Virus record (IMG/VR): IMGVR_UViG_3300005573_000857
Span: 1-64,000 of that record
Strand: one strand, 5' to 3'
DNA length: 64,000 bases
Source of the DNA: a virus
The position numbers and the translations under genes were made by a program. Shown here piece by piece: positions 22,995-53,796 of this stretch (its first letter is position 1; every line of letters begins with the position of its first letter). The notes beneath the pieces were generated by a model. It was not told the origin of the DNA. It did not search any database and saw nothing but the letters and a program-made list of their open reading frames with translations.

Positions 22995-25900
22995 ATGATT
23001 AAGCTCTTGGATGTTGACGACTTTGCAAAAGGGCTAGTTCCTGTCACTTCTACTGAGTACTTCTCACGAGCGGGTGAGTTTCATCCGGACGGGCTTTTTT
23101 CTGAGCAGATATTTGGTCCAGTTGGAACTTCAGACCGTAGAGAGAAGTACTCATTTATCGAGCTCCACACGAAAGTTGTCCACCCTACGGCGTATAGAAT
23201 AATTGTTGACCATCTTGACGGAAGAGTCGAAAAGTTTATCTCAACCGAAAAAGCGTATAATATTGTAAATGGAGCTCTTGTAGAAGATCCTGACGGTATT
23301 TCTGGTCTTGCATCCTTCATTAAAGTATTCCCTGAGATAAAGTGGAGAGGAGGAACTGCTAAAAGAGACTCTTTTATTCGCTTCTTGAAGCAGTCATATG
23401 AAGAAGGAACTCTTTTCATTAATAAAATTCCAGTCATTCCGCCAGCTTTTCGAGACGCAGTAAAGACAGAAGATAACCAGTGGGAGTTCGACCCTCTTAA
23501 TGACGAGTACTTGCTAGTTATGAGAAGAGCTTTTCAAGTAAGAGCTACGAAAGCTGGTCCTCTCTTTGACTTGTTGTGCTGTAGTCTCCAGGATGCAGTT
23601 ATCAAGTACGACAGTTTTGTAAGAGCTAAAATTGGAAAGAAGCATGGAGTTATTAGAGGGAATCTCCTTGGTAAAAGAGTCGATTTCTCCGGAAGAGCAG
23701 TAATTACTGTCAACCCTAATTTAAAGATTAACGAAGTCGGTATTCCAATAAGAATGGCGGTTCTTCTTTTTGAGCCATTTATAATTCACCATCTATTGTA
23801 CGTTAGAAAAGACCCTAGAGTGGCCGAACTCATAAAAAAGTTCACGGGTTCGGAGATGTCAGTAGACTCAGTAAAGAGAGTGCTAAGAGCTATACGGGCT
23901 GGAGATACTATTCCACAAGAGTTGTATGACATCATATTCGAAGTTACGAGTACTGTGGCGGAAAAAAGAGTAGTTCTTTGCAAGAGAGATCCAGTCCTGC
24001 ATCCAGAATCAGTACGTGCGTTTCAAGCTATTGTAGTGCCAGGAAGTACTTTGCAAATATGTTCTCTCCAAGTTGGTGGTTTTAATGCAGATTTCGATGG
24101 AGACCAGATGGCTGTTTACCATCCACTTACCGATGAGGCACAAGAAGAAGCAAGAACAAGAATGATGGGAGCGTTTACTGGAAGAACCTTTACGGATGTG
24201 AGCTTCGATATTACTAAAGAAGCTTGTGTCGGTTTATACATGCTTTCGTTAAATGTTCCCCTTGAGAAGAAGGCTGCACCCCACGCTACAGCGGAAGCAC
24301 TTGAAAATGCAGTTGATCCGTATACTCCTGTTCACTTTAAAGGACGAACTACTAGCGTAGGTAAAGCAATAATTAATGCTTGCTTTCCAGCAGAGTTCAG
24401 GTTCGTAGATGAAGTAATGACAAAGTCTGTAGTGAAGAAGCTCGTTTACGAAGTAGCTGAAAAGTTTGGTGAAGATGCTGCAAGACAAACTGCGTTTAAC
24501 CTTCAGAAGCAAGGGTTTAAGTGGGCTACACTTTTAGCACCAAGTATATCGCTAGATTCTCTCGAAGTTCCAAAAGAGATTTACGTCTTGAAGCAGAGAT
24601 TGGCAAAAGCAACGCCAGAAGAAGCTACTGAAATTCTAAAGAAAATGAAACAAATTATAACTGACCATTTGCAAGGCTCTCCTCTTTACAATATAGTCGA
24701 GTCTGGAGGTTCTAAGGGGTGGGACCAACCACTTCAGATTTTAGCTGCTAAAGGTGTTATAGCTGATCCTAAAGGTAATATTTTAGCTCCGATAAAGTCT
24801 TCATTTACAGACGGACTAACACCGTCTGAATTCTTCTACTCTGCTAGCGGTTCTAGAAAAGGAATAATTGATAGAGTTATAAATACAGCGGATACTGGGT
24901 ACATTTCTAGACAGTTGGTAATGTTACTAAATCCAGTTGAGATTCATCCGTCTCTAGCTGACTGCAAGACTACCACTTACTTAAACTTGAAGCTTGACAG
25001 CTCTTCTATAAACAGGTTAGAAGGCCGTTTTGTCGTTCGTAGGGGTAAAATAGTACTTTTCGATAAGAACGACTACAAACCAGGAGATGTCATCCAACTT
25101 CGGTCACCGGTTTATTGTCAGTCTTGGAAGATATGCCACACTTGCTATGGTAGATTGCTACTAAAACATAGAAGTCCCTTTATTGGAGTTATTGCTGCAC
25201 AGAGAATTGGCGAGAGAGGGACTCAGCTAATTATGAGGACCTTCCATACTGGAGGAGCAGTCTCTCTTGAGAAAAAAGATATCCTTAATGATATAGTGTC
25301 TAACAACGACTTGCTAACTAAAAGTGACATCAGTAAGTATTTGAAACAAGAAGGAAATACTCTAATAGCTTCTAAAGACTGTTCTCTTACAATTGATTTA
25401 GAGTACTACGAGGATGGTAATACTCTAAAGCTTGACGAAGATTCTGCTACGTTATGGGTAAAGAGTTTGGTTAGCACTTTAACTATCGGTGATATTAAAA
25501 TAGAAGTTATTCTTGATTACGAAGCTACTATCTTTGCTAGAGAATTTTCTAGAACTGACAGATTTATTGTTCTTACCTTTAAAGAAGGCGAGTCTATTTT
25601 AGAAGTTTCTACAGAAGCTCAAGACATTAAAAAGCAAGTTCTCTACTTACGAAGACTTCTTGCTGGAAAAGAAGTCTTCAAAGATGTAGACCACCTCTTT
25701 TATAGGTTGCTCAAAATTTATAGTCCACCAGTAGCAGACATAGATATCGTTCATTTGGAAGTGTTGCTATCTCAGTGTCTTAGAGACAGTTCTAATCCAT
25801 CTATTCCAGCTAGACTTATGCTTGCTAAGGGTAAGTATAGTCCAGCTCTGGCCGATATAAAGAAGAACATTTTTGCATCCGGTTTTCTACAGGGTATTGC

Positions 25901-26009: not shown

Positions 26010-26019
26010 AGGACGAAAA

Positions 26020-29000
26020 ATGATTGTCTTCGATAGATTACGATTGTATACAATGGTTACTGACGGGCCAAAATACTATCCACTTGATAAAGCCCACCCA
26101 TTTCTACTTGTTTACTTTTCAGAAAATTCTACTTTTTCTGAAGACTACCACAAGTTAAATATTCGCTATATGGACGTCCGTTCTGTAGTTATACCGGTTA
26201 CTCGTTATCCGAGAACTAGACTTATGCCTGACTATAGGAAGTTGCTCCGGTCGTATAAGTTATTTCCGTACCCAGTTGGTAGTCAACCACCTAAGCAAAA
26301 CCTTATATACGATACTTCGCTTTACGTAACTTCGGTCGATGCTGCACTAAAACCGGTTAACTACCGCCAGAGAGCTGGACGATACATTCTAAGCATTTTA
26401 GACTCTGCCTTTGCTCAGTTTCCAGATTATAGAAAGACTTTACTTTATGTAGTAGACATTACGAAGCCTTTTCCGAAGTACATCAATAGGAAGATTTTCC
26501 CAGTCTTGATGCAAATTAGAGATGGTAACTTCTTATTCGACAACTTCTTGCTCTGTACGATTGGACCTAAGGGCCCGCGATACCGTTTGTTGATGAAAGA
26601 CAAACAGTACAACTTCCAGAGATTATACATGTACGTGAAAGCTACTACTTACACAGAAGTAGAGGAAGAAGAAACTGAAGAAAAAGCAGAAGCAGCTGCC
26701 ACTCTTGTAGTGTCTTCCATTCCGAAAGAAGTACTTCCTGAAGAGAAGAAGGATAAAGTAAAACAAGCTACTAAAGACTTCTTGAAGACTGACAAAAGTC
26801 ATATGGAAAAAGTGCTTTCTAAAGAAGTTTCAGATGAGTACATGTCGAATTTAGCTATTGCTTCCGTCTTGCAGAAAGTCTCTGGAAATTTCGATCGCAC
26901 TAAAAACTTATGGAAGATAATGTCTGTAAAGAAAGTAGATCCCTCAAAAGTGCTAAAGAAAGTAGCTAAAGATGTTGTTGACCAGATTCTTGTAAAGAAG
27001 CCTCCAGTCAATACTGCTACTGATCCAGTTACTAAACATATGGATGTAGTAGATGTTACGAACAGAAAGTCACCGGAACACTTGTTCCAGAAAAGGCAAA
27101 TAGATTTCCAGACGAACTTGAAGAAAGACGTTACTAACTCGTTTAAAGTTTTGGAGAAGAAAGAGACTCCGCTCTACGTAAAAGAAGTTTCTATTGAAGA
27201 CAAAGAAAAGAAGCCCGGTAGCTTAGAGCCGTCAGACATTAGCGTAGTAAAAGTAAGTCTGCAAGATGCTTCTGGAAGAAAGCACGACGTTTCTATAGAA
27301 ATTCCTAAGATTGACAAGTTTGGTACGTTTAGAGTTAATGGGCAGCGGAAGTGCTTAGTAAACCAAGTAGTTACTTGTCCAATAAGTTTCCCAAAGAAGT
27401 ACGATTCACGTTTTGAGAGTTCGTATTCGAGTTTTCATATCTACAGTAAACGGGGAAGGATAAATTACTTAGAAGCTTTTATCGCTTCATATAAGATTCC
27501 TCTTTTAGTTTTATTGTCGTACGTTTTTGGCTTTGAAGAAACTTTAAAAGCGTACGGTATTAAGTACAAAGTCCAACCCAAACAAGAAGGAGAATTTTCG
27601 GTAAAGATAGCTCCAAAAACGTTTGTCGTTTTCGAAAACGTAGACTCGGAGCTAAAAAGAGAGCTAGTAAATTCGTTTTCCAAAGCTGGCTTATGGAAGT
27701 TAGACATTTCGGCGGCTTTCCCGACAAAAGAGTTTTTTACGGAAGCTTTGCACAAAATTACTGGTAGAATAAATTCTTCTTACCTTGTAAATGAAGTAAC
27801 TGCTAATGTGGTTGATCCAGTAGCACGACAGATACTTATAAATATGCAACTTCCTTCTGACCTGTTTAGTATTATTTTCTACATGTCTTCGAAAGTTGTA
27901 GAGGGTTACGTTCAAGAGAGGACGGATCTATCTAACTTAAGAGTAAGAGGATCCGAAGTTCTTACTCACTTGATCCAGAAGCAAGTTTTAGCAGCTTTTA
28001 CTGCATACAGAGAGCAAGTTTTATCTGGAAATAAGAATCCGCAGTTCACTATAAGTCCGACAAAAGTTTTGCATGATTTCGTAAATTCCGATATTGTGAC
28101 GCTTATGGAATTTGCGAACCCAGTAGAAGAAATGTCTAGCATAACGAGGACCACACCAATTGGTAGAGGTGTTGGCGGAATAGCTGACAGAGAAGCTATA
28201 CAGATAGAGGCAAGAAACGTCCATCCATCTTTCTTTGGCAATATAGATCCTCTCGATACTCCTGAAGGACCCAACGTTGGCGTCACACAACAGTTAGCTA
28301 TCGATGCTACTGTCACATCTGCTAGAGGACTATTTCAAGTTAAGCCAATCGATGACAGAGAAGGTGCAGGAATTCTTTCTACTAGCACTTGCTTAATTCC
28401 GTTTGTAGAGAATAACGATGGTGTTAGAATAATGATGGCTGCTAACCAAGCTCGTCAAGCTCAACCTTTAAAAGATCCAGAGCCTCCAATAGTTAGAAGT
28501 GGTTTTGAGTCTCTTCTAACTAACGTTTTGTCTGACAACTTTGTAAAGAGATCGCCATGTAATGGGGTGGTCCGAAAAGTAACAAGAGATTCTATTGTAA
28601 TTGCTTGTAGAACTGGAAAACAAGTAGTTGACATAACTCCAGTCCACTTACGGTCTGGCTCTGGGAAGAATACTCTTAGTGTTTTTATTCCGAAGGTTGT
28701 AGAAGGCCAGTCAGTTAAGCAGGGTTCTATAATAGCGGAAGGGTCTTGTATTTCAGATGGAACTATAGCCTTAGGCAGGACGTTATGTGTCTGCTTAATG
28801 CCATACAAGGGTTATAACTTCGAAGACGCAATAGTAATAAACGAAAAGCTAGTGGAAAATGACAAACTAACTTCTCTCCATGGTATAACGATCGATGTAG
28901 ATGTTAGCGAAAAAGATAGACTACTATACATAGCTTCTATAGGACAAAGAACTGAAAAGGGACAAATATTGCTAAAAAAGTCTATTGGCGAAGTAGAAGA

Positions 29001-30102
29001 ACTAATTGGTTATGAGGAAGAGAGAGACGATATTGATGTGGCAGAAGGATACTTTGTCCAGAAAAGTCCGGGTGGTGTTGTAGTAGATATAGAAGTTTTC
29101 TGCAATACAAATCCAGCTAAGTTCCCGGCTTTGCGTGACTTAATTGAAAGAACGAACAAGAAGCATGGAGTATCAAGTGGTAACTACTACACGAGGGAAG
29201 GAAGATTTAAGGGAATAAAAGTTAGATTTAAAGTAGAGCAAGAGCTGAAAATTCAGCTTGGGGACAAGCTTTGCAACCGATACGGAAATAAGGGAATTAT
29301 CTCTCTTATTGAAAAAGACGACTTAATGCCAAGAACACCCTGGGGTGAAACAGTAGACGTCATACTAAATCCCATAGGTGTTTTAAGCAGAATGAACGTT
29401 GGCCAGTTATTTGAGATGTATACTGGCTTAATTTCTAGAGCGTTAGCTTTTAAGTTCTTGGTTTTGTCTAGGACACAAGCAATTGACTTAGCTCGAAAAG
29501 TCCTGCAAGTGTTAGACACATCTAAGAACCAGCAGTTTAGTTCTTCATTTATTAGAGCTCTTAGTAATTTGTCGGAACGAGCATACAAAGAGTTTCTTGA
29601 GAAGTTAAAGAAGAGTACTTTTTTACCGATTGTTATTCCTCCTTTTGCTGCACCAAAGCAAGACAAAATTCGAGCTGCCCTTAGACTGCTGGGCTTAGAA
29701 CCAGCGTATCATTTGTACTTGCCAGAATTTGGGACTAAAACTCATTACAAAGTTCCAGTTGGATACATGTACATCTTAAAGTTGGAGCATTTGGGCGAAA
29801 TGAAGCTCCATGCTAGGTCAACTGGTCCAACTATTTCGAGAACATTGCAGCCAACTGCTGGTAAGAGGAGAGAAGGAGGACAGAGAGTTGGTGAAGCCGA
29901 CACTTATGCCCTTATATCTCAAAACTGCTTAAAAGTTTTAGACGAACTATTTGGTCCTTTAAGCGACGATGTAGTTACTAAAGAAGAGATTATTTCAGAT
30001 ATCGTTAGGACTGGATCAGCTAAGTGGAGGCCATCGAAGACGTCTCCAATACGAGAGTTAGTAAACAGCTACTTTATAGCGTTAATGTTAGAGAGGCAGT
30101 AA
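26020..30102 (+). CDS. Phage RNA polymerase beta-like subunit, copy 1, with long N-terminal extension
   Basis: RNVHPS.FG.I.P..TPEG.NVG, ENND..R.MM..NQ.RQ, GYNFEDA, GDK...RYGNKG, KLEH, GGQRVGE. Confidence 0.95.
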   Translation: MIVFDRLRLYTMVTDGPKYYPLDKAHPFLLVYFSENSTFSEDYHKLNIRYMDVRSVVIPVTRYPRTRLMPDYRKLLRSYKLFPYPVGSQPPKQNLIYDTSLYVTSVDAALKPVNYRQRAGRYILSILDSAFAQFPDYRKTLLYVVDITKPFPKYINRKIFPVLMQIRDGNFLFDNFLLCTIGPKGPRYRLLMKDKQYNFQRLYMYVKATTYTEVEEEETEEKAEAAATLVVSSIPKEVLPEEKKDKVKQATKDFLKTDKSHMEKVLSKEVSDEYMSNLAIASVLQKVSGNFDRTKNLWKIMSVKKVDPSKVLKKVAKDVVDQILVKKPPVNTATDPVTKHMDVVDVTNRKSPEHLFQKRQIDFQTNLKKDVTNSFKVLEKKETPLYVKEVSIEDKEKKPGSLEPSDISVVKVSLQDASGRKHDVSIEIPKIDKFGTFRVNGQRKCLVNQVVTCPISFPKKYDSRFESSYSSFHIYSKRGRINYLEAFIASYKIPLLVLLSYVFGFEETLKAYGIKYKVQPKQEGEFSVKIAPKTFVVFENVDSELKRELVNSFSKAGLWKLDISAAFPTKEFFTEALHKITGRINSSYLVNEVTANVVDPVARQILINMQLPSDLFSIIFYMSSKVVEGYVQERTDLSNLRVRGSEVLTHLIQKQVLAAFTAYREQVLSGNKNPQFTISPTKVLHDFVNSDIVTLMEFANPVEEMSSITRTTPIGRGVGGIADREAIQIEARNVHPSFFGNIDPLDTPEGPNVGVTQQLAIDATVTSARGLFQVKPIDDREGAGILSTSTCLIPFVENNDGVRIMMAANQARQAQPLKDPEPPIVRSGFESLLTNVLSDNFVKRSPCNGVVRKVTRDSIVIACRTGKQVVDITPVHLRSGSGKNTLSVFIPKVVEGQSVKQGSIIAEGSCISDGTIALGRTLCVCLMPYKGYNFEDAIVINEKLVENDKLTSLHGITIDVDVSEKDRLLYIASIGQRTEKGQILLKKSIGEVEELIGYEEERDDIDVAEGYFVQKSPGGVVVDIEVFCNTNPAKFPALRDLIERTNKKHGVSSGNYYTREGRFKGIKVRFKVEQELKIQLGDKLCNRYGNKGIISLIEKDDLMPRTPWGETVDVILNPIGVLSRMNVGQLFEMYTGLISRALAFKFLVLSRTQAIDLARKVLQVLDTSKNQQFSSSFIRALSNLSERAYKEFLEKLKKSTFLPIVIPPFAAPKQDKIRAALRLLGLEPAYHLYLPEFGTKTHYKVPVGYMYILKLEHLGEMKLHARSTGPTISRTLQPTAGKRREGGQRVGEADTYALISQNCLKVLDELFGPLSDDVVTKEEIISDIVRTGSAKWRPSKTSPIRELVNSYFIALMLERQ

Positions 30103-37967: not shown

Positions 37968-38045
37968 AAAAGAATGGATGGTAAAAAACCGACCTGACTT
38001 GGATGATCGTTGCAAGGTTGCTAGAAAAACTTCATGAGGTGCAAC

Positions 38046-38249
38046 ATGGATGCTTTTTTGACAGCATTAGAAATAGTCGTATTAACTGCAATGGCATTAC
38101 CGCTTGCGTACATCGGTGTAAGAATACTAATAGCTGGTTTATTCGACAACGAATACGATTGGATAGATGCAATTTTTGGCTTGACATTAACAGCAGTAAG
38201 CAGCCTGGGAGGCGGTGTTCTATTGATGCTATTGTCTAAAGGATGGTAA
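38046..38249 (+). CDS. Small two-TM membrane protein, paralog 1
   Basis: GAGGTG SD; two hydrophobic segments. Confidence 0.7.
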   Translation: MDAFLTALEIVVLTAMALPLAYIGVRILIAGLFDNEYDWIDAIFGLTLTAVSSLGGGVLLMLLSKGW

Positions 38250-38260
38250 AGAGGTGCAAC

Positions 38261-38461
38261 ATGGATGCTTTTTCGACGGCATTGGCAATAGCTATAATGG
38301 CTTGGATAGCACTACCACTTGCATATGTCGGTGTAAGAACATTAATAGATGGTTTATCTGGTAAGGATGGTTGGATAGATGTGATTTGTGGCTTGGCATT
38401 AATAGTAGTAAGTAGCCTAGCGAGCGGTGTCCTATTGCTGCTATTGTCTAAAAGATGGTAA
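38261..38461 (+). CDS. Small two-TM membrane protein, paralog 2
   Basis: Shares GAGGTGCAACATGGATGCTTTTT and ALPLAY.GVR.LI.GL with paralog 1. Confidence 0.7.
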   Translation: MDAFSTALAIAIMAWIALPLAYVGVRTLIDGLSGKDGWIDVICGLALIVVSSLASGVLLLLLSKRW

Positions 38462-41096: not shown

Positions 41097-41314
41097 AAAA
41101 TCTAAAGAGAATTGCAGAAAGACAGTTAGTCCAAATTGGCTCATCGTGGTATGACGTCTGCCACATTGGCAGGAAACATGTAACGATAGGTGACAAGTCC
41201 AAACCACTAAACATTCCGAAAACTATGGTCAAGAAGTACAAGACTGAGCTGATAGATTTAGAAGAGAGTGAACGAAAGGGAGGAAGCGTATGCCAAGAAC
41301 TTCAGAAAACTTGA
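41093..41314 (+). CDS. Hypothetical protein
   Basis: ATGA overlap; GGAGG SD. Confidence 0.5.
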   Translation: MKNLKRIAERQLVQIGSSWYDVCHIGRKHVTIGDKSKPLNIPKTMVKKYKTELIDLEESERKGGSVCQELQKT

Positions 41315-41937
41315 AGTTTATGGATGACGACAATCTGCTCGACAATCTTAAACCAATTGTTGTAGAACTATACAGTAGAGTAGAAGACCTCGAAGATATA
41401 GCAGAGACGGCGGACAATAAAATAAAAGAACTTGGTAGTGAGTTGACAAATACAGTTGGAAAATTGCAAGAGCTTAAGTTCTCGCAACTAGAGAAAAGCA
41501 CTCCTAAGAAAAAGATATGGACTATTAGCAGGACTTTTGCTATTCCAGTTGGCCATAGGCTTATGACTCATAAGGGAAAATGCCAGAATCTCCACGGCCA
41601 TAATCTAAAAGTGCGTGTTTGCTTAAGAGCTGAGCAGCTTAACCAGAACTGCATGGTAGTCGATTTTTCTGACTTGAAAAGAATAGCTCTAGAATCGATA
41701 CTAGATAAGCTAGATCACTCACTTCTGCTAAATAGAGAAGATCCGCTACTGCAAGAAAAGAATACTTTAAGTGAAAAGTTTAACATCGTAAAGATAGAAG
41801 GAGAACCTACCGCCGAAACTTTGGCTGAGTTTATATATACTTTACTTAGCCAGAAACTGCCTGCAGGCATACAGATGGATTCGGTTACGGTATGGGAAAA
41901 TGACGAATCCGAAGCAACGTACAAGGAGGTCGTATGA
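41290..41937 (+). CDS. queD: 6-carboxy-tetrahydropterin synthase with N-terminal coiled coil
   Basis: GHRL..H.GKC.NLHGHN, MVVDFSDLK, LDH..L, PTAE.LA, VWE. Confidence 0.9.
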   Translation: MPRTSENLKFMDDDNLLDNLKPIVVELYSRVEDLEDIAETADNKIKELGSELTNTVGKLQELKFSQLEKSTPKKKIWTISRTFAIPVGHRLMTHKGKCQNLHGHNLKVRVCLRAEQLNQNCMVVDFSDLKRIALESILDKLDHSLLLNREDPLLQEKNTLSEKFNIVKIEGEPTAETLAEFIYTLLSQKLPAGIQMDSVTVWENDESEATYKEVV

Positions 41938-42360: not shown

Positions 42361-43818
42361 ATGCTAACTTTTAAGAGAACTTCTGGAATAGAGATTCCGA
42401 GGACTTACTTGAAGGAAGATTTTTATACTAAAATTAAGGACTTTCTGAGAAGGAGAGTCAAGTCTTACCAGACCTCAGATTTTTCTGTCTATAATTTCTT
42501 TGTAGAAAACAAAGAAAGTCTTATTGTGCCGAGATTCTTCCCTATGGAAATGTTCCTACCAGACTGTGAAGTACAGGATAGTTTAAGTGATGGCCAAGAT
42601 ATTGACATACAGCACAGTATTCTCTTAAGAGATACTGTGCAGCACGATATGGTTGACTACTTACTGAAAAATGACAGAGGTATAATCCAAGCACCTCCAG
42701 GGTCTGGTAAGACTGTTGTCTGTATTTATGCGATTGCAGAGAGAAAAAAGAAAGCTTTTATTTTAGTCCATAGAAGTTCTTTATGTGACCAGTGGAAGGG
42801 TCCTGGTATTGAAGCTAAGCAAGGGTTCTTGTCATTTACGTCTCTGAGTGAGAAAGACGTAGCAATACTCGACTCTTCGTCTTTCGTTGAAGACTTGAAG
42901 AAACCGATAATCATTTCTACAAACCAAACGTTTGTCTCTCTACTTAAGAGGGAGCCGAGCTTTCCTGACGAATTACGAAAAGCAAACATAGGCATTTTCG
43001 TTGCTGACGAAGTCCACACATCAGTTGGTGCTCCTATCTTTTCGTTGTGCTCTATACATGTCCCAGCAAAAGTTGTTTTTGGATTTAGTGCTACTCCGTA
43101 TCGATGGGATGGAAATGAAGACATTATTCGCTACCACCTTGGTGAAGTCTTCATTCCAAGTGGTACTCGAGAAACAGTAGAAGGAAAAGTTACGTTCTTG
43201 ATGTTCGACTTTGGTATAAGGAAAACTAGCTTACCCTACATATACTGGGGCTGCGAATTTCAGAAAAGTCGATACTTAAACTTGCTGAGGAAAGCTGGAA
43301 GGTTCGTAAGTGTATGTAAGTCGTTACTGAAAAAGTTTTCGGAAGATGGAAGACAAGTTATTTTCGTTGCTGAGAGGATTAAGCTCTTGACTGAGCTCTA
43401 TGACTGGTTAGACCATCCTAATAAGTCGGAGTTCTTTGGTAAAGAAGGGAACGAACGTCTAGAATACCAAGTGACGTTTGCTACGCCCGGCAAAATTAGA
43501 GATGGTGTTGACGCTCCTAAAAAAGATTGCTTGATTCTAACCTCGCCGATAGGGAACATCGAGCAAATGTGTGGTAGAATTGAGCGAGTAGTTGAAGGGA
43601 AGAGGAATGTCATAGTAGTCGATATGGTTGACTTAGGTTTTCAAGAAATTTCAAGGACTATGGTTTACAGGCTAAAGTACTACGAAAAGAAAAAATGGTC
43701 TGTACGCTTCGTTAAATTGTCCGAAAACGGTTATGAGGAAATAACAAAGAAGCAAGCTTTAGAACTCGCTAAAATAGCGACAGAAAGGAGAAAGAATGAA
43801 GTTCATCTTTATAGCTGA
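42361..43818 (+). CDS. SF2 helicase (UvsW-like)
   Basis: APPGSGKT, DEVH, SATP.R.DG, GVD, QMCGRIER. Confidence 0.9.
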   Translation: MLTFKRTSGIEIPRTYLKEDFYTKIKDFLRRRVKSYQTSDFSVYNFFVENKESLIVPRFFPMEMFLPDCEVQDSLSDGQDIDIQHSILLRDTVQHDMVDYLLKNDRGIIQAPPGSGKTVVCIYAIAERKKKAFILVHRSSLCDQWKGPGIEAKQGFLSFTSLSEKDVAILDSSSFVEDLKKPIIISTNQTFVSLLKREPSFPDELRKANIGIFVADEVHTSVGAPIFSLCSIHVPAKVVFGFSATPYRWDGNEDIIRYHLGEVFIPSGTRETVEGKVTFLMFDFGIRKTSLPYIYWGCEFQKSRYLNLLRKAGRFVSVCKSLLKKFSEDGRQVIFVAERIKLLTELYDWLDHPNKSEFFGKEGNERLEYQVTFATPGKIRDGVDAPKKDCLILTSPIGNIEQMCGRIERVVEGKRNVIVVDMVDLGFQEISRTMVYRLKYYEKKKWSVRFVKLSENGYEEITKKQALELAKIATERRKNEVHLYS

Positions 43819-44821
43819 TCTTCATTTGGCGCAGTACGGACCTGTTGTGGAGAATGATTTCCCGGAAAAGTTATACTACATCTTGCAAAGTATGCAGGAA
43901 GTTGTTGATTTCGCTAAAGCCAAGAAAATCCAGACTATTGTAGTTGGTGGAGACATTTTCCACACTAAGAGTATAATTCATTCGTTAGCCCAATCCGCTT
44001 TGCTAGACTTTATTAGAAACAACCGTAGTATAGATTTCGTGGTATTAGATGGAAACCACGACATGTCTTCGAAGTCTGCTAAAGCTAGTGTTTCCAGTTT
44101 GAAGTGTTTAGACTCAGAACCTAATGTACATACTATCCACGAACCGGAGCAAAGTGCAGATATTTACTTTCTTCCTTGGATCCATGTCTCGAAAGAGTTA
44201 CTTTCAAATGTGCAGTCGAAGTTTCTTATCTCACACTTTGGGGTGAACGAAGCAAAATTGTCTTCTGGTATTTCTATAGTTTCCGACGTCGGGTTAAAAG
44301 ACTTGGCAAATTTCCGTTATGTACTTCTGGGTCATTACCATAAACCGCAGGAGATCATGTCTAGCAGTTTGTCTCTATACTACGTTGGTTCTCTAATCCA
44401 GTTAGATTGGTCTGAGAAGCATGAAGAAAAACGTTTTCTAGTTGTAGATACTGAGCTAGAGAGTATCGAGAGTTTCCCGACCACTCGGTATAGGAAGTAC
44501 GTAGAGTTACTAGTAACTAAAGAGACTAAACGAGAAGTAATCGAAAGAGCTAAGGCTCTTCTTGAAGAAGGACACCACGTTCGGATAATGACTGATGATT
44601 CGACACTAATGCCAGAAGTAAGTGAGGAAGTCGGTCAAGAGGCTAGTGTTATCCTGAGAGACGAGTCAGATTCGAAGATAACTAATAGAGGAATCTCGTC
44701 TTCTATGAGTATGAAAGATAAACTAAATCGCTACCTTGACTTAAAGAACATTACTCAAGATCGAGAGTTCTATGTAAGAAAAGCAATTGAGATAATAGAG
44801 AAGTCAGGAGGAGAAAAGTGA
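43796..44821 (+). CDS. Mre11/SbcD-like nuclease (T4 gp47-like)
   Basis: ADLH, GGDIFH, GNHD, SH, LGHYH. Confidence 0.92.
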   Translation: MKFIFIADLHLAQYGPVVENDFPEKLYYILQSMQEVVDFAKAKKIQTIVVGGDIFHTKSIIHSLAQSALLDFIRNNRSIDFVVLDGNHDMSSKSAKASVSSLKCLDSEPNVHTIHEPEQSADIYFLPWIHVSKELLSNVQSKFLISHFGVNEAKLSSGISIVSDVGLKDLANFRYVLLGHYHKPQEIMSSSLSLYYVGSLIQLDWSEKHEEKRFLVVDTELESIESFPTTRYRKYVELLVTKETKREVIERAKALLEEGHHVRIMTDDSTLMPEVSEEVGQEASVILRDESDSKITNRGISSSMSMKDKLNRYLDLKNITQDREFYVRKAIEIIEKSGGEK

Positions 44822-47001
44822 AAAGTGTAAGCTTTAAGAGCGTTGGGATGAAGAACTTCTGCTGCTTTAAGGACGAGATATCGCTCGAGTTTAGTGGTGA
44901 AAAGTTAGTTCTAATTACTGGCCCAAATGGCTCTGGAAAAACAACTCTTTTCGATTGCATACCTTTCACGCTTTATGGTTCTACTAGCAAAGGATTAAGA
45001 AGTGACGATGTAGTAAATGTCGAAGTTGGGAAAAACTGCCATACTTGGCTAGAGTTTTCTGTTGACGGTTCTAACTTCCGTATTGATAGGTACTGCAAAC
45101 ATTCGAAAATGGGTAATACTGTTACAGTTGCGAAAGATGGTAGTATTATAAAGAAAGGTCAGACTGAGGTTCTTCCGTTTGTGGAAGAACTGCTTGTTCC
45201 ACAGAAACTTTTCATGAATACTTTACTGTTTTCTCAGAAAGTCAGGACATTCTTTACAGACTTACCAGATTCGGAGCAGAAAGAAATCTTTAGAAAAGTC
45301 TTGCAGCTCGACAACTTCTTGCTTTATTACAATACGTGCAATGCAGAACTGAAACGTATAGAAAATGACCTTCGAACGGTAGAGAAAGATATTGAAGTGA
45401 AAATATCGCTCTTCGAGGAAGCCGTAGGAAATATTACAAGAACTAAGCATGAGAAAGAACAGTTCTACTTGAAGAAAAAAGAGCTCTTAGCTCAGCTTAG
45501 CCAGAAGTTGGTAGAAAAGAAAGCAGAACTTGAGAGTGCGAAAGCTACTTTGGAATCTTTCGAACTAGAGAAGTTGCAAAAAGATCTCGAAGTTTCTACA
45601 GCGAAGATGGCTTCTCTTTCTGCCACTCTTTCGCAACTCAAAACGGAACTCGAAAAAGAGCAGCAAAAGATTATTTACGACAAAAATGAAGCAATGAGTG
45701 AAGTGCGACGAAAGGCGGAGTCAACTCTAAAAAAGAACTTAGAAATAAAGACAGAGAAAGTAAAAGAACTTAGTAAAAAGGCAACAGATAGCGTTAAACC
45801 TCTTACTGAAAGATTTTCTACTTTAGACAAGGAACTCTCTTCTCTTCGGACAGAGATGTCGGTTTCTGGAAGACAAGTACAAGAGTTAGAAGAAAAGATT
45901 GCCGTCTTCGAAGAAGGACTAAAAGGTGACATTCCAGTTTGTGCTGCTTGTAAGCAACCACTAAAGGATGCGACATCTCTTAAAGCTTTTTTGGACAACT
46001 TGAAAAGAGACTACGAACAACTGAAAGCGAAAACGAACTACTTGCCAGAACTGTTTGCACAAAAGAGCAAAGAAAAACAAGAAGTACAAACCGCAATAAG
46101 TGACTTAGAGCGAGCTTATAATGAAGAGTTAGAAGCTCTAGAGAAAGATTACAAGGAGAAAGAAGAAGAAGTTGAATCTAAGCTAAGGAAGACGCTAGAT
46201 GAGTTAGAGGAAGTTGCTAGGCAGAAGCTTGAAACTCTTAGCGAAAGTTTCTCGGAGAAAGAAAGTGAAGTTCTTCGTAACATACAAAACCAAGAGTCAG
46301 AGGAGAAACGACTCCGTAGTGTTCTGCAAGAAGCGAAAATTGTACAGCAGAAAGTTGTGCTACTTGAAAAAGAAGTAGCGATAGCAGAAGAACAGCTTAG
46401 GCAAAAGGAGCAAGAAGAGTTTGACGAAGAGAAGATAACGTATTGGGTAGATATGAAGAAGAATCTAGAAAACTCAATTTGTTCTTTAGAGCAGCGTAAA
46501 GCGGAAGTAGAGAAAGAAAAGAACTGCATAGAGTTTTGGAAAGAAGGGTTCTCTTCCTCTGGTATACCCAGTATGCTAATAGACGAAGCGATACCGTTCA
46601 TGAATAGTAGAATTTCTCAATATTTAGAGAAGATTGGTGGAAGGTACATTGTTTCCTTCGACACCATTGGCGAAACGAAAGCTGGAGAGTTTAGGGATAA
46701 GATTACTGTTAGAGTGCTAGATGTAAAAACGAAAGCAGACTCTAGAAAGAAGTTGTCTGGCGGGCAAACTCGAATTGTAGATATTGCTACTATTTTAACT
46801 CTTAGTGATTTGCAAAGCAAAGTACAAGACATGAAGTTCAACATCATGCTCTTCGACGAAATATTCGATTCCCTAGACGACGAAAATATTTCGTACGTTT
46901 CAAGTTTGCTTAGAACTCTTCTGGAAGGTAAGTCAATCTACATTATTTCGCATAGACATATAGACCAGATAGAGGCAGACGAAGTTCTGCGGTTCTACTA
47001 A
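44818..47001 (+). CDS. Rad50/SbcC-like ATPase (T4 gp46-like)
   Basis: GPNGSGKTT, coiled coil with CAAC Zn hook, LSGGQ, FDEIFDSLD, ISH. Confidence 0.93.
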   Translation: MKSVSFKSVGMKNFCCFKDEISLEFSGEKLVLITGPNGSGKTTLFDCIPFTLYGSTSKGLRSDDVVNVEVGKNCHTWLEFSVDGSNFRIDRYCKHSKMGNTVTVAKDGSIIKKGQTEVLPFVEELLVPQKLFMNTLLFSQKVRTFFTDLPDSEQKEIFRKVLQLDNFLLYYNTCNAELKRIENDLRTVEKDIEVKISLFEEAVGNITRTKHEKEQFYLKKKELLAQLSQKLVEKKAELESAKATLESFELEKLQKDLEVSTAKMASLSATLSQLKTELEKEQQKIIYDKNEAMSEVRRKAESTLKKNLEIKTEKVKELSKKATDSVKPLTERFSTLDKELSSLRTEMSVSGRQVQELEEKIAVFEEGLKGDIPVCAACKQPLKDATSLKAFLDNLKRDYEQLKAKTNYLPELFAQKSKEKQEVQTAISDLERAYNEELEALEKDYKEKEEEVESKLRKTLDELEEVARQKLETLSESFSEKESEVLRNIQNQESEEKRLRSVLQEAKIVQQKVVLLEKEVAIAEEQLRQKEQEEFDEEKITYWVDMKKNLENSICSLEQRKAEVEKEKNCIEFWKEGFSSSGIPSMLIDEAIPFMNSRISQYLEKIGGRYIVSFDTIGETKAGEFRDKITVRVLDVKTKADSRKKLSGGQTRIVDIATILTLSDLQSKVQDMKFNIMLFDEIFDSLDDENISYVSSLLRTLLEGKSIYIISHRHIDQIEADEVLRFY

Positions 47002-47016: not shown

Positions 47017-47352
47017 ATGAAACTTAGGAGAGGTTTTGTAACCAATAGCAGTAGTACTTCGTATGTTGTCTTTGGCTTTAAGTTGCCGAAAGAGATCTGG
47101 TTTGAAGACAATGGTCCTTACTTACTTGATAACGAAGAAAAGAAGTCTCTTGGAATTCCTGAGGAACTGCAAGCTTTTTATGACAGCGGTAGGGTTTTAG
47201 TTGGTTCGTGTTTCAAAGAATATGATTCAGAAATAGAAGTTAGTGCAAAAGATCTCTTAGCGAAGACAGAAACAATAAAAGAGTGTGCTGCTAAGTTTGG
47301 TGTAGACCTAAAAGAAGTTCTCTTGTTTGCTAAATTCCACTACGACGGTTGA
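47017..47352 (+). CDS. 'MKxRxGFVxNSSS' motif protein
   Basis: N-terminus MKLRRGFVTNSSSTSYVV; ends ..HYDG. Confidence 0.7.
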   Translation: MKLRRGFVTNSSSTSYVVFGFKLPKEIWFEDNGPYLLDNEEKKSLGIPEELQAFYDSGRVLVGSCFKEYDSEIEVSAKDLLAKTETIKECAAKFGVDLKEVLLFAKFHYDG

Positions 47353-47366
47353 AGAGGAAGAAACTA

Positions 47367-48392
47367 ATGGTTAGAATTGTTAATTGGCTAGTCACTAGAA
47401 AGTGTAATCTTCAATGCTCTTACTGCAGAATTGCTAGGAGCTACGAGTCTCCGAAAGAGTATCCGAAGATAATAGACTTCTACAAGAATGAAGTTAGCCT
47501 TGACTTTATTGTAGAAGCTCTTAGACGATTTAAAAATCATAACCCAGAATGCTTCCATATCTTCTATGGTGGCGAGCCTCTATTGAGGTTAGATTTAAAA
47601 GATATTGTTGCTTTCTGCAATAAAGAAAGCATTAACTATACCGTTATTACGAACGGGACAGAGGAGTTAGAACCATACTTGGAAGAGCTCTTATCCACGA
47701 CGAAGTTAGCTGGTCTCACAACGTCAGTCGATCCAGTAATCTTTTCACGAGAAGAAAGTGAAGACATTCTTAAGAAAAGTTTAGCTGGGTTAGAGCGTCT
47801 CTCTAAGTATAAAGAGCAAGTTGGTGATTTGGTAGCAGAGGTTACTGTTGGCAAAGACAACTTAAAGTTTCTTCATGATCTCACGAGAGAACTTACGTCT
47901 AGAAGAATCACTAGTTCGATTACTTTTATAGACATAGCGAAAAGCCCGTACTACGATTTTTCGAACATAACGGATACTTCTGTCCTTGTCTCTAAAGAAG
48001 AAGCTCTTCCTGTCTTGAACGCTATAGATGATGACGATGATGTAGACGTCCACATGAAGCATACACTTTTACCCAAGCTATACCAAGCTCTTCCGTCTAA
48101 CTTAGATTGTAAGATAGAGGAAAGCGTACATAACCTGACTATTGACAGTGACGGAACAGTGAGACTTTGCTTAAGAATTCGTGGGGTAAAGACACCAGAG
48201 AAGACGATTCTACAATACTTAAATAGTGACGGGTCAATTGGTGACGAACTAAAAGAAAGATTGGCAGAAGACAAGAGAAGCTACTGTAAGCTTTGCAATT
48301 GGACTTGCCCGATCATGAGTTCTCTTGTCGAATGTGGAAGTAGTGATGTAAAATATCTTATCCATTCTGAAAGGAGAGACCAATGGGTATAA
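47367..48392 (+). CDS. Radical SAM enzyme with C-terminal Cys cluster (SPASM/Twitch-like)
   Basis: CNLQCSYC, GGEPL, ITNG; C...IDSDG.V.LC...CKLCNWTC. Confidence 0.85.
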   Translation: MVRIVNWLVTRKCNLQCSYCRIARSYESPKEYPKIIDFYKNEVSLDFIVEALRRFKNHNPECFHIFYGGEPLLRLDLKDIVAFCNKESINYTVITNGTEELEPYLEELLSTTKLAGLTTSVDPVIFSREESEDILKKSLAGLERLSKYKEQVGDLVAEVTVGKDNLKFLHDLTRELTSRRITSSITFIDIAKSPYYDFSNITDTSVLVSKEEALPVLNAIDDDDDVDVHMKHTLLPKLYQALPSNLDCKIEESVHNLTIDSDGTVRLCLRIRGVKTPEKTILQYLNSDGSIGDELKERLAEDKRSYCKLCNWTCPIMSSLVECGSSDVKYLIHSERRDQWV

Positions 48393-49420: not shown

Positions 49421-49450
49421 GGGAACTCACTAATTCGTTAGTGAGTTCCC
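49421..49450. promoter_or_regulatory. Perfect 13-bp hairpin with TTCG loop
   Basis: GGGAACTCACTAA-TTCG-TTAGTGAGTTCCC; no + strand U-tract; an A-rich run precedes it. Confidence 0.7.
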
Positions 49451-49492
49451 GTAGATCTAGTCTGGAAGGCAGAGAATAAAAATAATGGAGAG

Positions 49493-50359
49493 GTGTTCAT
49501 GCAGATAGAGAAGTTAGTTCTCGTCGGCTTGGGATCTCTTGGAAGTTTTCTGTGTGAGAAATTATGCAAACTGAGAAAACTTAGGGAAATTACTCTCATT
49601 GACTACGATATCGTAGAACGAAAAAACTTGGAGACAAGTAACTTTAAACAAAGTGACGTTGGTCTACTAAAAGTAGATGCAATGGCCAAGCTTGTAAAAG
49701 CAACTAGCAAAGAGATAAGAGTAAGAAAAATCCCAGAAAAGTTTGTCGAAGGACAAACAAAGATCCCAAAAGCCGATCTTGTATTAGACACTCGAGACTT
49801 TAACTACGATAGAGGAAAGTTAATCGATGCTCGTCTATTCCTTTCCCTACCGTATCTTGTAGTTGACTGCAGGAAAAATGTAACTTACCACAGAAAGTAC
49901 GAAGGAAAGTATCCGTTGAGTATAACGAGAGAAGACATTGTCGATGCCAGTAACCATGCTTACTCTCTTATAGCTAGAGGATACTTAGACCATCTTTTGA
50001 GAAGACAATCAGTCTATACGATAGAGATTGACAAGATTACGAAAGACTTCTTAGAAAGTTCGCATACTTCGTACGATTTTGCTTGCGATATTGACGAAAG
50101 CAGGATTTCAAACATAGTTGCGAATATTCCAGCTGTTCTCGAAATGAACAACCAGGCAGAAGTCGTCGTTTATCTTGGAAGTAAAAAAGATCCAGTCATT
50201 TCAAGAAAGCTTCCGCAAAACTTCTTAAGAACGCCGGATGATGTTTCCTCTTGTTTTCTTTCTATGCTAAAAGGTCTTCCAGACTTTAGGAACTACTTTG
50301 TTGTAGTTTCTAAGAAGGACTTTTGCATAGAACTCATTCCAGAAACTGCTTCCGCATAG
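49493..50359 (+). CDS. ThiF/E1-like adenylyltransferase with possible C-terminal beta-grasp domain
   Basis: LVGLGSLGS, LIDYDIVE.KNL, DVG..KVD, DLVLDTRD. Confidence 0.8.
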   Translation: MFMQIEKLVLVGLGSLGSFLCEKLCKLRKLREITLIDYDIVERKNLETSNFKQSDVGLLKVDAMAKLVKATSKEIRVRKIPEKFVEGQTKIPKADLVLDTRDFNYDRGKLIDARLFLSLPYLVVDCRKNVTYHRKYEGKYPLSITREDIVDASNHAYSLIARGYLDHLLRRQSVYTIEIDKITKDFLESSHTSYDFACDIDESRISNIVANIPAVLEMNNQAEVVVYLGSKKDPVISRKLPQNFLRTPDDVSSCFLSMLKGLPDFRNYFVVVSKKDFCIELIPETASA

Positions 50360-50367
50360 AGGCGAAA

Positions 50368-50751: not shown

Positions 50752-50885
50752 GAAACACTGTTTACGAAACAACACACCAGTTTTTCTCTAGTATTAAGCA
50801 GGCAATTAATAATTGTATCGACATGATTGAAGAATATGTAAAAGAAAAGACCGATGAACTCTTCGGTAAGGAGGAGGAAAAATGA
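50718..50885 (+). CDS. 55-aa helical protein (not in ORF track)
   Basis: ATG after GAGGAGG/AGGT: MALREEFKAKIRN...GKEEEK; ATGA overlap with the next gene. Confidence 0.55.
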   Translation: MALREEFKAKIRNTVYETTHQFFSSIKQAINNCIDMIEEYVKEKTDELFGKEEEK

Positions 50886-51097
50886 GTGTTTTCGGTCAAG
50901 AAGCAGTAGAGGAAATTAAGTCTATCGTTAAATCTTGTTTCGACGAAGTGACAAAGAGTGAGAAACAAGAAGCTATTAAGTTAATAGAAGAAAAACTTAG
51001 CAAACTTGTCGCAGACGAGGTGAGTAACTACTTTAGAAAAATTTCTACATATGTTCTATATGGGGAGATTGTCAATAAATTGGAGGAAAAAAAGTAA
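50882..51097 (+). CDS. 71-aa helical protein translationally coupled to RNAP beta' 2
   Basis: GGAGGAGG SD; TAATG overlap. Confidence 0.65.
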   Translation: MSVFGQEAVEEIKSIVKSCFDEVTKSEKQEAIKLIEEKLSKLVADEVSNYFRKISTYVLYGEIVNKLEEKK

Positions 51098-53796
51098 TGC
51101 CAGAACTCTTTAACATTGACGAGTTTTGCAAAGACCTACCAGAAGTGACGAGTTCGAAAATTAAAGAAAAGGGAAAGTTTAGTCCTCACGGGCTTTTTTC
51201 TGAGCAGATATTCGGTCCAGTTACTAACTACACTTGTCAGTGCGGTAAGTACTCTGGACCTTCTTCTCCAGTTGAGAAATGCGACATTTGCGGTGTCGAA
51301 ATAACCTCGTCAATTGAAAGGAGAAGAAGATTCGCCAAAATAGTTCTTCCATTAAAAGTAGTAAATCCGACATTCTACAACTTAATTGCAGTTACAGCTG
51401 GAAGAGTGAAGAGTCTATTAGACACACTAATGAAGGACGAGAAAAGCGTATTGTACAAAGAAGGAGACGAATATGTAGTAGCTCAAACTGCACCTCCGAA
51501 TGTAAAAGTATGGGAAAGATACGAAGCTATGGAAGAACTTATTAGAGGTCTGGCTACTTACACTGTAGAGAACAGTGACCCAGACGTCCCAATCGTTAAG
51601 TCTTGGAAATTCATAAAAGACAACATTGACAAGATGTTTATTAAGAACATTATCGTCCTTCCACCAGACTTGCGACCAATCTCGAAAGCTGGTAATGACG
51701 TGCAGAAAGCTGATCGTATAAACTGGTTTTACAACTTTATTCTGGTTAAGAAAGAGAAAATGAGAGATACTATGTTCGATGTTAACCAGAATAAAGCTCT
51801 CTTTTACGCGTACTTTAAGCAGCTACAGAAGGCTGTAAACGAGCTCTTCGACCACATAATAGAGAAGTTGTCCAAGAAAGAAGGACTAGTTAGAGGGAAC
51901 ATCTTGGGGAAGAGGGTAGATTTCTCTGGAAGAGCAGTGATAGTTCCAAAAGTAACTCTTAACATCGACGAGTGTGGTCTTCCGTACTTTATGCTTTTGG
52001 AAATCTACAAGATGCAGATTGCCAAGCGGCTCGTTGGAACTACCGTAAAAACTCTTAATGAAGCCATAGAGTATGTAGACGAGTGTATTCGAATGAAGAG
52101 CAAAGACCTGCTTGACGTATGTGAAGAGGTTACTAAGCATGAAGTATGTCTGCTAAATCGTCAACCTTCTTTGCACAGACTGAGTTTAGTTGGATTTAAA
52201 ATCAAAGTCTGTCTTGGTGACGTTATTTACCTCCATCCGCTAGTCTGCTCCGGTTTTAATGCAGATTTCGATGGAGACCAGATGGCTGTTTACATTCCCC
52301 TTTCTCCAGAAGCAAAGCAAGAGGTTCGAGAAAAGCTGATGATTACTAAGAACTTCTCGAATCCAGCAAATGCTTCTTTGTCAACTCTTCCAAACCAGGA
52401 CGTAGTCCTTGGTATCTACGCCTTAACTACAAACTCGTTCCCGAATTTAAGAAACTTGGTAGAGTGTAAGGGCAGCTTAGTTACTGAAAGCATGGCTATC
52501 TTTAATAAGTGCTTGCCTGATGACTACCCTTTAGTAAACAAAGTCGTAACGAAGAAAGAGTTAATCGAGATACTAACAGACATAAAAGAGAAGTACGACC
52601 CGGAAACAGTGAGAGTTGTTCTTGACGAAGTAAAGGAGAAAGGGTTCAGGTACTCTACACTTTTCGGAGCTTCATTGTCGCTTCAGTCCTGTTATGTGCC
52701 GGACCATGAAAAAGTAAGAGACGATCTTTACTCACCAAGTGATGTAAAAGAACAGATTGCGAAAGTTTCTGGAAAAGAATCTGAAACTATCTTACGTGAG
52801 AAATTTCCCTATGCCTACATGGTTGAGTCTGGGGCTCGTGGTAGCTGGGACCAAGTTCGTCAGATCGTCTTAACAAGAGGTTTTATTTCGAACTTCAAAG
52901 GACAAATCTTGAAGACTCCAGTAAAGAGAAGTCTTTTGGACGGACTTACTAGAGAAGAGTTCTTCTTGTCTACTTTTGGTTGCAGAAAAGGTCTTCTTGA
53001 TGTTGCACTAAACACTGGAGCATCTGGCTATTTGTCAAGGAAACTAGTGTTTACTGCTGCGAACGCTCTAGTAAGTGAAACAGTTGAAGATTGTGGTACT
53101 ACTGATTTACTTGAAGTTTATGTGGACTCGACTAAGAAAGCTAAGATGCTAATTGGTCGGTACTACAAAGATGCGTCTGGTAAACTCGACAAAATTACGA
53201 AGAAAAACTACGCACAGTTTTTGGGGAAGACTATATTTATAAGGAGCCCAATTTTCTGTCGTAGTCTAGAATTCTGCCACACTTGCTACGGAGATCTGTA
53301 TAAGACTCTGCATAGCCGCTTCGTTGGTGTTATAGCTGCACAAAGCTTAGGAGAGACGAATACTCAGCTAATATTGAGAACGTTCCATACTTCAGGAGTC
53401 GCTGTAGTAAAAGGCGAAGCCTCTCTGAAGCAGAAAGATATAGTAGCAGACTTGAGTGCAGCTTCGAAACTATTACACCAGTTAGAAGGAGTTAACTATA
53501 AAGATTTAGTGCACGATTTGTTCGAAGTCTACAATACTTCTAGAGAAATTTTCTCAGTCCACATTGAAGTTATTGTCTCTGAAATGATGTGGGCTGGAAA
53601 CGTTCTTTGGAGAATGGCGAAAAATAGAGACAAGATAACTCCAACGTACCATAGTGTCCAAAGCGTTCCTGCTAGACAAAGCTGGTTACTTGGTTTCGCT
53701 TTTTCTCATCCGAAGTGGAATTTGCTTAGAGGTGTGCAGTATTCTGGTGAGTACGTTGGTCCAATTGATAAGATGCTAAGAGGCGAGAGAATCTAA
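51097..53796 (+). CDS. Phage RNA polymerase beta'-like subunit, copy 2 (with Zn-binding domain)
   Basis: CQCGKY...CDICGVE, VLPPDLRP, LGKRVDFSGRAVI, NRQPSLHR, NADFDGD, SGARG, RTFH. Confidence 0.95.
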   Translation: MPELFNIDEFCKDLPEVTSSKIKEKGKFSPHGLFSEQIFGPVTNYTCQCGKYSGPSSPVEKCDICGVEITSSIERRRRFAKIVLPLKVVNPTFYNLIAVTAGRVKSLLDTLMKDEKSVLYKEGDEYVVAQTAPPNVKVWERYEAMEELIRGLATYTVENSDPDVPIVKSWKFIKDNIDKMFIKNIIVLPPDLRPISKAGNDVQKADRINWFYNFILVKKEKMRDTMFDVNQNKALFYAYFKQLQKAVNELFDHIIEKLSKKEGLVRGNILGKRVDFSGRAVIVPKVTLNIDECGLPYFMLLEIYKMQIAKRLVGTTVKTLNEAIEYVDECIRMKSKDLLDVCEEVTKHEVCLLNRQPSLHRLSLVGFKIKVCLGDVIYLHPLVCSGFNADFDGDQMAVYIPLSPEAKQEVREKLMITKNFSNPANASLSTLPNQDVVLGIYALTTNSFPNLRNLVECKGSLVTESMAIFNKCLPDDYPLVNKVVTKKELIEILTDIKEKYDPETVRVVLDEVKEKGFRYSTLFGASLSLQSCYVPDHEKVRDDLYSPSDVKEQIAKVSGKESETILREKFPYAYMVESGARGSWDQVRQIVLTRGFISNFKGQILKTPVKRSLLDGLTREEFFLSTFGCRKGLLDVALNTGASGYLSRKLVFTAANALVSETVEDCGTTDLLEVYVDSTKKAKMLIGRYYKDASGKLDKITKKNYAQFLGKTIFIRSPIFCRSLEFCHTCYGDLYKTLHSRFVGVIAAQSLGETNTQLILRTFHTSGVAVVKGEASLKQKDIVADLSAASKLLHQLEGVNYKDLVHDLFEVYNTSREIFSVHIEVIVSEMMWAGNVLWRMAKNRDKITPTYHSVQSVPARQSWLLGFAFSHPKWNLLRGVQYSGEYVGPIDKMLRGERI

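Follow-up and report, generated by a model that had tools for sequence, protein, structure and literature searches.

Two short tracts shared by the diverged RNA polymerase beta' genes of a giant phage are probably the result of gene conversion

The window considered here, that is, the whole stretch of DNA that was analysed, comprises the first 64 kb (64,000 nucleotides, nt) of a 91,893-bp viral record from IMG/VR, IMGVR_UViG_3300005573_000857. By the CheckV estimate the record is only about 29% complete, and therefore its source is a giant phage; the sequencing runs containing the window sequence are hot-spring and sediment metagenomes. The window encodes two complete, unsplit pairs of beta' and beta subunits of RNA polymerase (by Pfam), all on the + strand, which we denote sets A and B. 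The two beta' genes, gene A and gene B, are strongly diverged, being 38% identical in protein (306 of 798 aligned residues) and about 46% in DNA, and the N-terminal Zn ribbon is present in gene B and not in gene A. They share two short tracts of complete or nearly complete nucleotide identity, which are the subject of this study. The polymerase genes and the tracts are as follows.

22995..26009, + strand: gene A, unsplit beta' paralog of 1004 amino acids (aa); Pfam RNA_pol_Rpb1_2 and Rpb1_5; full-length A-type orthologs 47–57% identical; putative recipient of both tracts
23089..23123, + strand: tract 2 in gene A, 35 nt, encoding GLFSEQIFGPV; 34/35 identical to gene B (32/33 in frame); contigs of runs X2 and X3 (below) break here
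24078..24119, + strand: tract 1 in gene A, 42 nt, catalytic Mg-binding motif GFNADFDGDQMAVY; 42/42 identical to gene B; separate k=31 contig in three runs; high surprisal score (below)
26020..30102, + strand: beta subunit gene of set A (Pfam Rpb2_6, Rpb2_3), internal negative control
51097..53796, + strand: gene B, unsplit beta' paralog of 899 aa; Pfam Rpb1 domains 1–5; B-type orthologs 51–58% identical; putative donor
51188..51222, + strand: tract 2 in gene B, putative donor copy; C at 51213 is the only difference
52252..52293, + strand: tract 1 in gene B, putative donor copy; left flank of gene B joined to the tract in run X4
53820..56957, + strand: beta subunit gene of set B (Pfam), internal negative control

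The preliminary description of this DNA, made from the letters alone, reported 42 identical base pairs with 13 matching degenerate codons and a second patch of 34 out of 35, and both observations are accurate. Tract 1 encodes GFNADFDGDQMAVY with the same codon in A and B at all 13 degenerate positions, and its extension by one base fails on both sides. The sole mismatch of tract 2 is T at 23114 against C at 51213; besides the in-frame codons of GLFSEQIFGPV, this tract includes the last two bases of the preceding codon. With exact stretches of 42 and 25 nt, the tracts are the longest exact direct repeats of the whole window. The third longest, 23 nt, is intergenic (38036–38058 and 38251–38273, in a low-GC region at 38–39 kb). 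In the entire record the 42-mer occurs exactly twice. The beta genes of sets A and B have no common exact stretch of 16 nt or longer, though they share conserved motifs. Within the beta' genes, the motif LGKRVDFSGRAVI had been proposed as a control differing at most synonymous sites, and indeed only 5 of its 13 codons are common. At the protein level, nowhere else do the paralogs have such long stretches of identical amino acids as in the tracts, with 14 residues in the catalytic NADFDGD loop and 11 residues of GLFSEQIFGPV. The tract ends coincide exactly with the ends of amino-acid identity, and the right edge of tract 2 also falls on the boundary of the Zn-ribbon indel.

The simplest explanation of identical motifs would be chance combined with codon bias, as invariant residues encoded by preferred codons might suffice. 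Over the whole proteins, identical degenerate residues have the same codon in A and B in 141 of 300 cases (47%), and the usage of two-fold codons in the window is near even (GAC 0.55, TAC 0.59, AAT 0.52, CAA 0.52). Given the window codon usage, the analytic probability is 1.8e-5 for a match at all 13 degenerate codons of tract 1 and 1.1e-5 for a match at all 11 codons of tract 2; with about 1e-5 to 1e-4 allowed for the latter, both tracts together would have a probability of about 1e-9 or less. In 4,000 resamplings of the synonymous codons of both beta' genes, the longest match attained 42 nt once, and the second longest never attained 25 nt.

As an empirical null, we used combinations of A and B genes from related phages, almost all of them between different genomes. 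A 42/42 identity at tract 1 was observed in one of 2,739 pairs, and this is the within-genome pair of the window. The longest exact matches of cross-genome pairs, which are unable to convert each other, also lie on the NADFDGD motif and reach 35–36 nt (up to 41/42 overall), and the rpoC gene of an unrelated Tenericutes metagenome-assembled genome (MAG) matches at 40/42. However, the long cross-genome matches are formed only with the AT-rich codons of the family consensus, whereas both window copies of tract 1 have the minority codons TTC (used by 4–9% of relatives), GAC (16–25%), CAG (12–20%) and TAC (0–17%). Weighted by codon rarity (surprisal), tract 1 scores 20.0 bits, against a cross-genome mean of 3.8 (standard deviation 2.0, maximum 10.8), and tract 2 scores 16.6 bits, against a mean of 3.5 and a maximum of 12.8. 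In frame, the window pair is identical at 32 of 33 positions of tract 2, and the next-best of 1,440 pairs at 30. Thus the tracts are longer than divergence and codon usage predict. Since, in addition, gene A has residues characteristic of B-type genes in these places (see below), codon bias with chance, which the preliminary description had named as capable of overturning its interpretation, is effectively refuted, and we assign it a negligible probability.

The record is a metagenome assembly, and assemblers are notoriously prone to errors at repeats that exceed k: two near-identical stretches could be homogenised by graph simplification or repeat collapse, or the contig could be misjoined at the repeat. 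We placed independent k=31 contigs from Logan, for four runs (X1–X4), on the gene A locus (window 22800–24800). Runs X1, X2 and X3 come from three studies, and the source sample of the window is probably X1. In all three, the left contig stops at 24107, 30 nt into tract 1, the right contig begins at 24090, and a separate contig of exactly 42 nt spans 24078–24119. The depth of this node is 14 in X1 (flanks 8.6 and 6.5), 24.9 in X2 (20.5 and 16.2) and 117.5 in X3 (60.8 and 58.3), that is, 1.4–2 times the flanks. In a de Bruijn graph, such a pattern is characteristic of an exact repeat that is present in two copies and exceeds k. The boundaries of tract 1 are the same in the strains of X1–X3, despite single-nucleotide differences from the window elsewhere.

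For tract 2, X2 and X3 each show a contig break at 23118 and a new start at 23094, as predicted for an exact 35-nt repeat at 23089–23123, and in both runs gene A retains T at 23114; therefore gene B also has T there. In X1 the contig is uninterrupted, as expected from the 34/35 identity of the window. Hence C at 51213 is probably a later substitution in the window's strain. The B locus is supported indirectly, by the 1.4–2-fold depth of the node, by an X4 contig joining the left flank of gene B to the tract, and by an X3 contig with the two tracts at its ends. Each beta' gene can be aligned over its full length with the orthologs of its own clade, and therefore there is no A/B misjoin at the repeat. 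Thus, by the topology and depth of the k=31 contigs in three runs, both copies do exist in the same molecule or population. Assembly collapse, the other possible refutation considered at the outset, does not agree with the clean two-copy signature; an independent assembler gave the exact 42-nt boundaries in three studies and does not disagree with the contig at the tract, so that an artefact is hardly credible.

The family of this phage is large and uncultivated, and all of its contigs of sufficient length carry one A-type and one B-type beta' gene. The maximum-likelihood tree was built for 27 A and 27 B proteins, 54 sequences from 27 genome records (two of them near-identical), each of the 27 having one A and one B. 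The A and B proteins are split at one branch with 100% support in the Shimodaira–Hasegawa-like approximate likelihood ratio test (SH-aLRT), and the whole-gene A–B nucleotide identity is 0.44–0.52 both within and between genomes. Hence the genes were duplicated before the family arose, and they do not evolve in concert over their whole length. The paralogs are older than the tracts: inside tracts 1 and 2 the sequences group by genome, and the remainder of the genes groups by paralog. In DNA, the tract of window gene A is the same as that of window gene B and unlike those of the 33 A-type orthologs compared. The nearest A ortholog, the best protein among 5.8 billion, is 57% identical. No closer relatives that would allow for dating were found in IMG/VR, and a metagenome scan yielded only bacterial-type rpoC at about 30% identity. 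The window lineage forms a long isolated branch in the 54-sequence tree, and the window A protein is the only one of the 54 with a deviating amino-acid composition (chi-square p<0.001).

The direction of transfer is suggested by the amino-acid states. The B-type genes are almost invariant at SEQIFGP[VLI] and QMAVY, whereas the A-type genes vary there. Out of 119 A orthologs, five have Q at SE[x]IFG, three have the full GLFSEQIFGPV, and one has the full GFNADFDGDQMAVY. The nearest A orthologs (52–57% identical) have SEIIFGPV or SELIFGPL at the former site and QMALF, QIAVY or QMAVF at the latter. Gene A of the window is in the B-type state in both tracts (SEQIFGPV, QMAVY), down to the rare GGG and CTT codons of gene B. 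As these states are rare among the A orthologs, the simplest reading would be two transfers from B to A.

Taken together, the codon-usage simulation, the null of 2,739 pairs, the contigs of three runs, the tree and the B-type residues in the tracts of gene A support short-tract gene conversion between ancient paralogs, as had been suggested in the preliminary description. Specifically, we consider it probable that two independent, short, non-reciprocal transfers (ectopic micro gene conversion) occurred from gene B to gene A of the same phage genome. The events are older than the divergence of the strains in the three runs, with one later substitution in tract 2 of the window's strain.

Several observations weigh against this conclusion. 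The proposed direction rests on amino-acid frequencies, with no outgroup of dated split, and there is no intermediate relative, so that the state of gene A before conversion is reconstructed from distant orthologs only. The identity expected to have existed before conversion (cross-genome mean) is about 34/42 nt for tract 1 and about 21–22/33 for tract 2; therefore tract 2 is harder to explain mechanistically than tract 1, and its poor prior homology is uncomfortable for a classical homology-dependent mechanism. The roles of the recombination proteins in the copying, discussed below, are suggested by gene presence. Finally, similar events were sought in the family. In 12 other genomes the within-genome codon match exceeds the cross-genome one at both motifs (71.6 vs 61.9%, p=0.005; and p=0.018), but this was not replicated in 13 further genomes (61.7 vs 61.5%, p=0.47; and p=0.22), and the combined p of 0.015–0.02 should be compared with a general codon-usage baseline that is itself significant. 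Family-wide recurrent conversion was therefore rejected. Thus, of the comparison with related genomes proposed initially, the grouping of the window tracts by genome stands, and a within-genome excess throughout the family does not.

At the level of single genomes there are only hints of recurrence, in g17991 and g10391 at tract 1. The A gene of L008 (IMGVR_UViG_3300031669_004775) has the full B-type PFNADFDGDQMAVY, and that of L017 (IMGVR_UViG_3300001782_000005) has the B-type GLFSEQIFGPV, its DNA being 30/33 identical to the B genes of its own clade; judging by these motifs, both may be older B-to-A conversions in other lineages. B-like motifs are also seen in the A orthologs P0005, P0007 and P0116, the contig of P0005 itself being absent from IMG/VR.

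The conversion might proceed as follows. A broken or stalled copy of gene A would pair with gene B at the sole places with local homology, the two identity runs being the only ones where the otherwise about 46%-identical genes by chance offer enough of it. The trigger could be a spontaneous break, a stalled fork or an endonuclease cut. At the tract edges pairing may stop, or, alternatively, longer tracts may have overwritten paralog-specific residues and been lost by selection. The copying would be done by the phage's own machinery of T4-type recombination-dependent replication, with UvsX-like, Mre11/Rad50-like and RuvC-like proteins. The recombinase gene of the RecA/UvsX type, invoked from the start as a plausible agent, is present, and the candidate genes in the window are as follows.

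9406..9867, + strand: RuvC-like putative junction resolvase (Pfam RuvC, E 1.8e-6)
13253..14509, + strand: RecA/UvsX-like recombinase, candidate strand-exchange enzyme (Pfam RecA, E 2.3e-17)
42361–43818: ResIII/DEAD helicase
43796–44821, + strand: Mre11-like protein, candidate member of an end-resection complex (Pfam Metallophos)
44818–47001, + strand: Rad50/SbcC-like protein, candidate member of the same complex (Pfam SMC_N, SbcC_Walker_B)

The window also encodes a flap endonuclease, a clamp loader and a type II topoisomerase. By its predicted domains, this gene set is a T4-type replication and recombination kit.

Ectopic conversion between paralogs is known for tufA and tufB in enterobacteria, for rRNA operons, and, as human "microconversion", for CYP21A2 and CYP21A1P. 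The phage tracts resemble these cases in that a non-reciprocal identity patch is found in diverged paralogs of one genome and groups by genome, its excess is detectable in the manner of GENECONV, and the donor and recipient can be assigned. Unlike them, the phage paralogs are far more diverged and show no whole-gene homogenisation, the tracts, 35–42 nt, are confined to islands of invariant residues, and the phage has a T4-type recombination system of its own. Another parallel is phage mosaicism via short or diverged homologies, as in lambda Red recombination and in the recombination-dependent replication of T4 by UvsX and gp46/47. The likeness here is in the phage-encoded genes for a recombinase, an end-resection nuclease and a resolvase, and in exchange bounded by very short conserved sequence; the difference is that two paralogs of one genome are involved rather than co-infecting genomes, and that the outcome is a patch and not a crossover junction.

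Alternatively, both copies could have been overwritten from an outside donor, that is, the B gene of a co-infecting relative or the host rpoC, or a lineage-specific constraint on nucleotides, such as a protein- or RNA-binding site, could have driven their convergence. Exchange with co-infecting relatives is conceivable, as the A gene of L017 is closer to the B genes of sister genomes (30/33) than to its own B (27/33). However, neither the 42-mer nor the 33-mer has an exact match elsewhere in 2.9 million IMG/VR viral contigs, and 185,579 species genomes of GTDB do not contain the 42-mer. The graph node of 42 nt is unbranched and has 1.4–2-fold depth in three samples, so there is no third abundant context sharing a 31-mer. 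A donor among cellular genomes was rejected: a 33-nt core matches the rpoC of one Tenericutes MAG (40/42 overall), which by a rough estimate is within the chance expectation for 185,579 genomes. Moreover, tract 2 encodes a phage-specific motif; the bacterial beta' has GLFCxRIFGP at this position. As for the constraint at the DNA or RNA level, mentioned as an option in the preliminary description, the nucleotides in question are not conserved and relatives use other codons at both motifs, and seven or more silent sites would have had to converge, whereas a single copying event for each tract is a far more parsimonious account. We regard an outside donor or a constraint as quite improbable.

A more specific suggestion was that the tracts are shared homing sites for introns or inteins. 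Indeed, in one relative, G016, gene A is split in the catalytic motif, between NADFDGD and TMAIF, in the centre of tract 1 (L204, IMGVR_UViG_3300037468_000575, positions 885–5520 of L204, minus strand; G016:C1:68000-74500). Its N-terminal open reading frame (ORF) has about 130 extra residues after NADFDGD. The middle ORF, 356 aa, matches Pfam DUF7487 (E 1.6e-15) and has an HNH-like C-terminal motif, read by eye. The C-terminal ORF has about 52 extra residues ending in ...YDLTVEDNYTF...GVFVQD, followed by TMAIF. By eye, a split intein would agree with the sizes of the extensions (about 130 and 52 aa) and with a block F/G-like motif, but searches of Pfam and of PDB sequences gave no match for either half. 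The locus looks like a "fractured" RNA polymerase beta' gene with a putative split intein and a free-standing endonuclease, and its layout matches the described arrangement of such genes (PMC2677866).

There is a second hot spot of insertions into A genes, after GERGTQxIM[RK] in the trigger-loop region. In-frame LAGLIDADG inteins are found in gene A of L020, L027 and L028, at about residue 775 (motif IM[RK]/C…HN/[TS]FH, the slashes marking the junctions); L024 has an out-of-frame insert of about 1 kb at the trigger-loop hot spot, which may be an intron; and gene A is split into two ORFs there in several other genomes (the loci of the hot spot further include L018, L019, L023, L026, G008 and G011). 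Further, an HNH intron endonuclease of phage PhiPA3, gp210, attacks a conserved RNA polymerase motif of a competing jumbo phage (PMC11620839).

If the catalytic motif of gene A is a homing site in this phage family, tract 1 could have arisen in two ways. An endonuclease cut in gene A could be repaired from gene B, the only other homologous sequence in the genome, or an intein at DGD/T could be removed precisely by copying the uninterrupted B motif over the junction. Both routes would leave a B-identical patch across the insertion point, with 27 nt upstream and 15 nt downstream of it, and the B-to-A direction fits, as all insertions seen lie in A genes. This is a special case of the conversion described above, nested in it rather than additional to it. 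On the other hand, no endonuclease, intron or intein was found at or next to either tract in the window genome; the 91.9-kb record, only about 29% of the genome, contains neither a homolog of the G016 endonuclease nor, in its ORFs of at least 150 aa, a Pfam domain of homing endonuclease genes. The insertion at tract 1 is seen in one relative only, and the relatives of its endonuclease are distant matches elsewhere, none at the tract 1 site. The nearest A orthologs already have Q and not the Thr needed by an intein at +1. At tract 2 there is no insertion in about 110 loci, so homing cannot explain both tracts. Thus, from the suggestion of homing sites, the insertion at the centre of tract 1 in a relative remains, at most as a credible trigger for this tract; it does not account for the identity itself, nor for anything in tract 2. 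We consider a homing origin of tract 1 unlikely.

The resemblance to co-conversion during homing is accordingly partial. As in homing, essential polymerase genes are hit at invariant catalytic motifs and flanking sequence is copied during repair; moreover, the relative has an insert with an HNH-like gene exactly in the middle of tract 1. The differences are that neither window tract has an endonuclease or intein, that the donor is a paralog and not an element-bearing allele, and that tract 2 has no known element.

Some other features of the window are of interest. Around the operon of set B are located genes for QueD/PTPS (41290–41937), a radical-SAM enzyme (47349–48392), a ThiF/E1-like protein (49493–50359) and a FolE2-type GTP cyclohydrolase I (56954–57805), a set pointing to a 7-deazaguanine pathway of the queuosine type, which might serve DNA modification. 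Directly upstream of the ribonucleotide reductase gene there is a perfect palindrome of 24 nt (10305–10328).

Micro gene conversion as such is a known process. The setting is unusual: very diverged paralogs, tracts of 35–42 nt at the catalytic motifs of the two RNA polymerases of a giant phage, and, in a relative, the same junction occupied by a mobile element. A literature search found no published description of such a case. If conversion is the correct explanation, paralogs with only 38% protein identity still exchange DNA, via 35–42-nt "homology islands" formed by invariant catalytic residues, and the documentation of this exchange comes from reads of natural populations of a giant phage that is uncultivated. 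For a T4-type recombination system, the tracts set a natural lower bound on homology and on the length of a tract. Further, the codons of catalytic motifs in duplicated polymerase genes need not evolve independently, which matters for phylogenies, for estimates of synonymous divergence (dS), and for k-mer assembly, as the 42-mer breaks k=31 graphs.

With the G016 element at the same codon junction, a link of homing endonucleases or inteins to repair on a paralogous template also becomes testable. A built-in repair template against selfish elements might be provided by the second RNA polymerase gene, a cut or intein-bearing site of gene A being repaired or cleaned from gene B. We consider this somewhat more doubtful even than a homing origin of tract 1. 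If true, such repair would leave a B-identical, possibly endonuclease-resistant patch, and paralog-templated repair would be a defence against, or an exit from, invasion by inteins and introns in giant phages.

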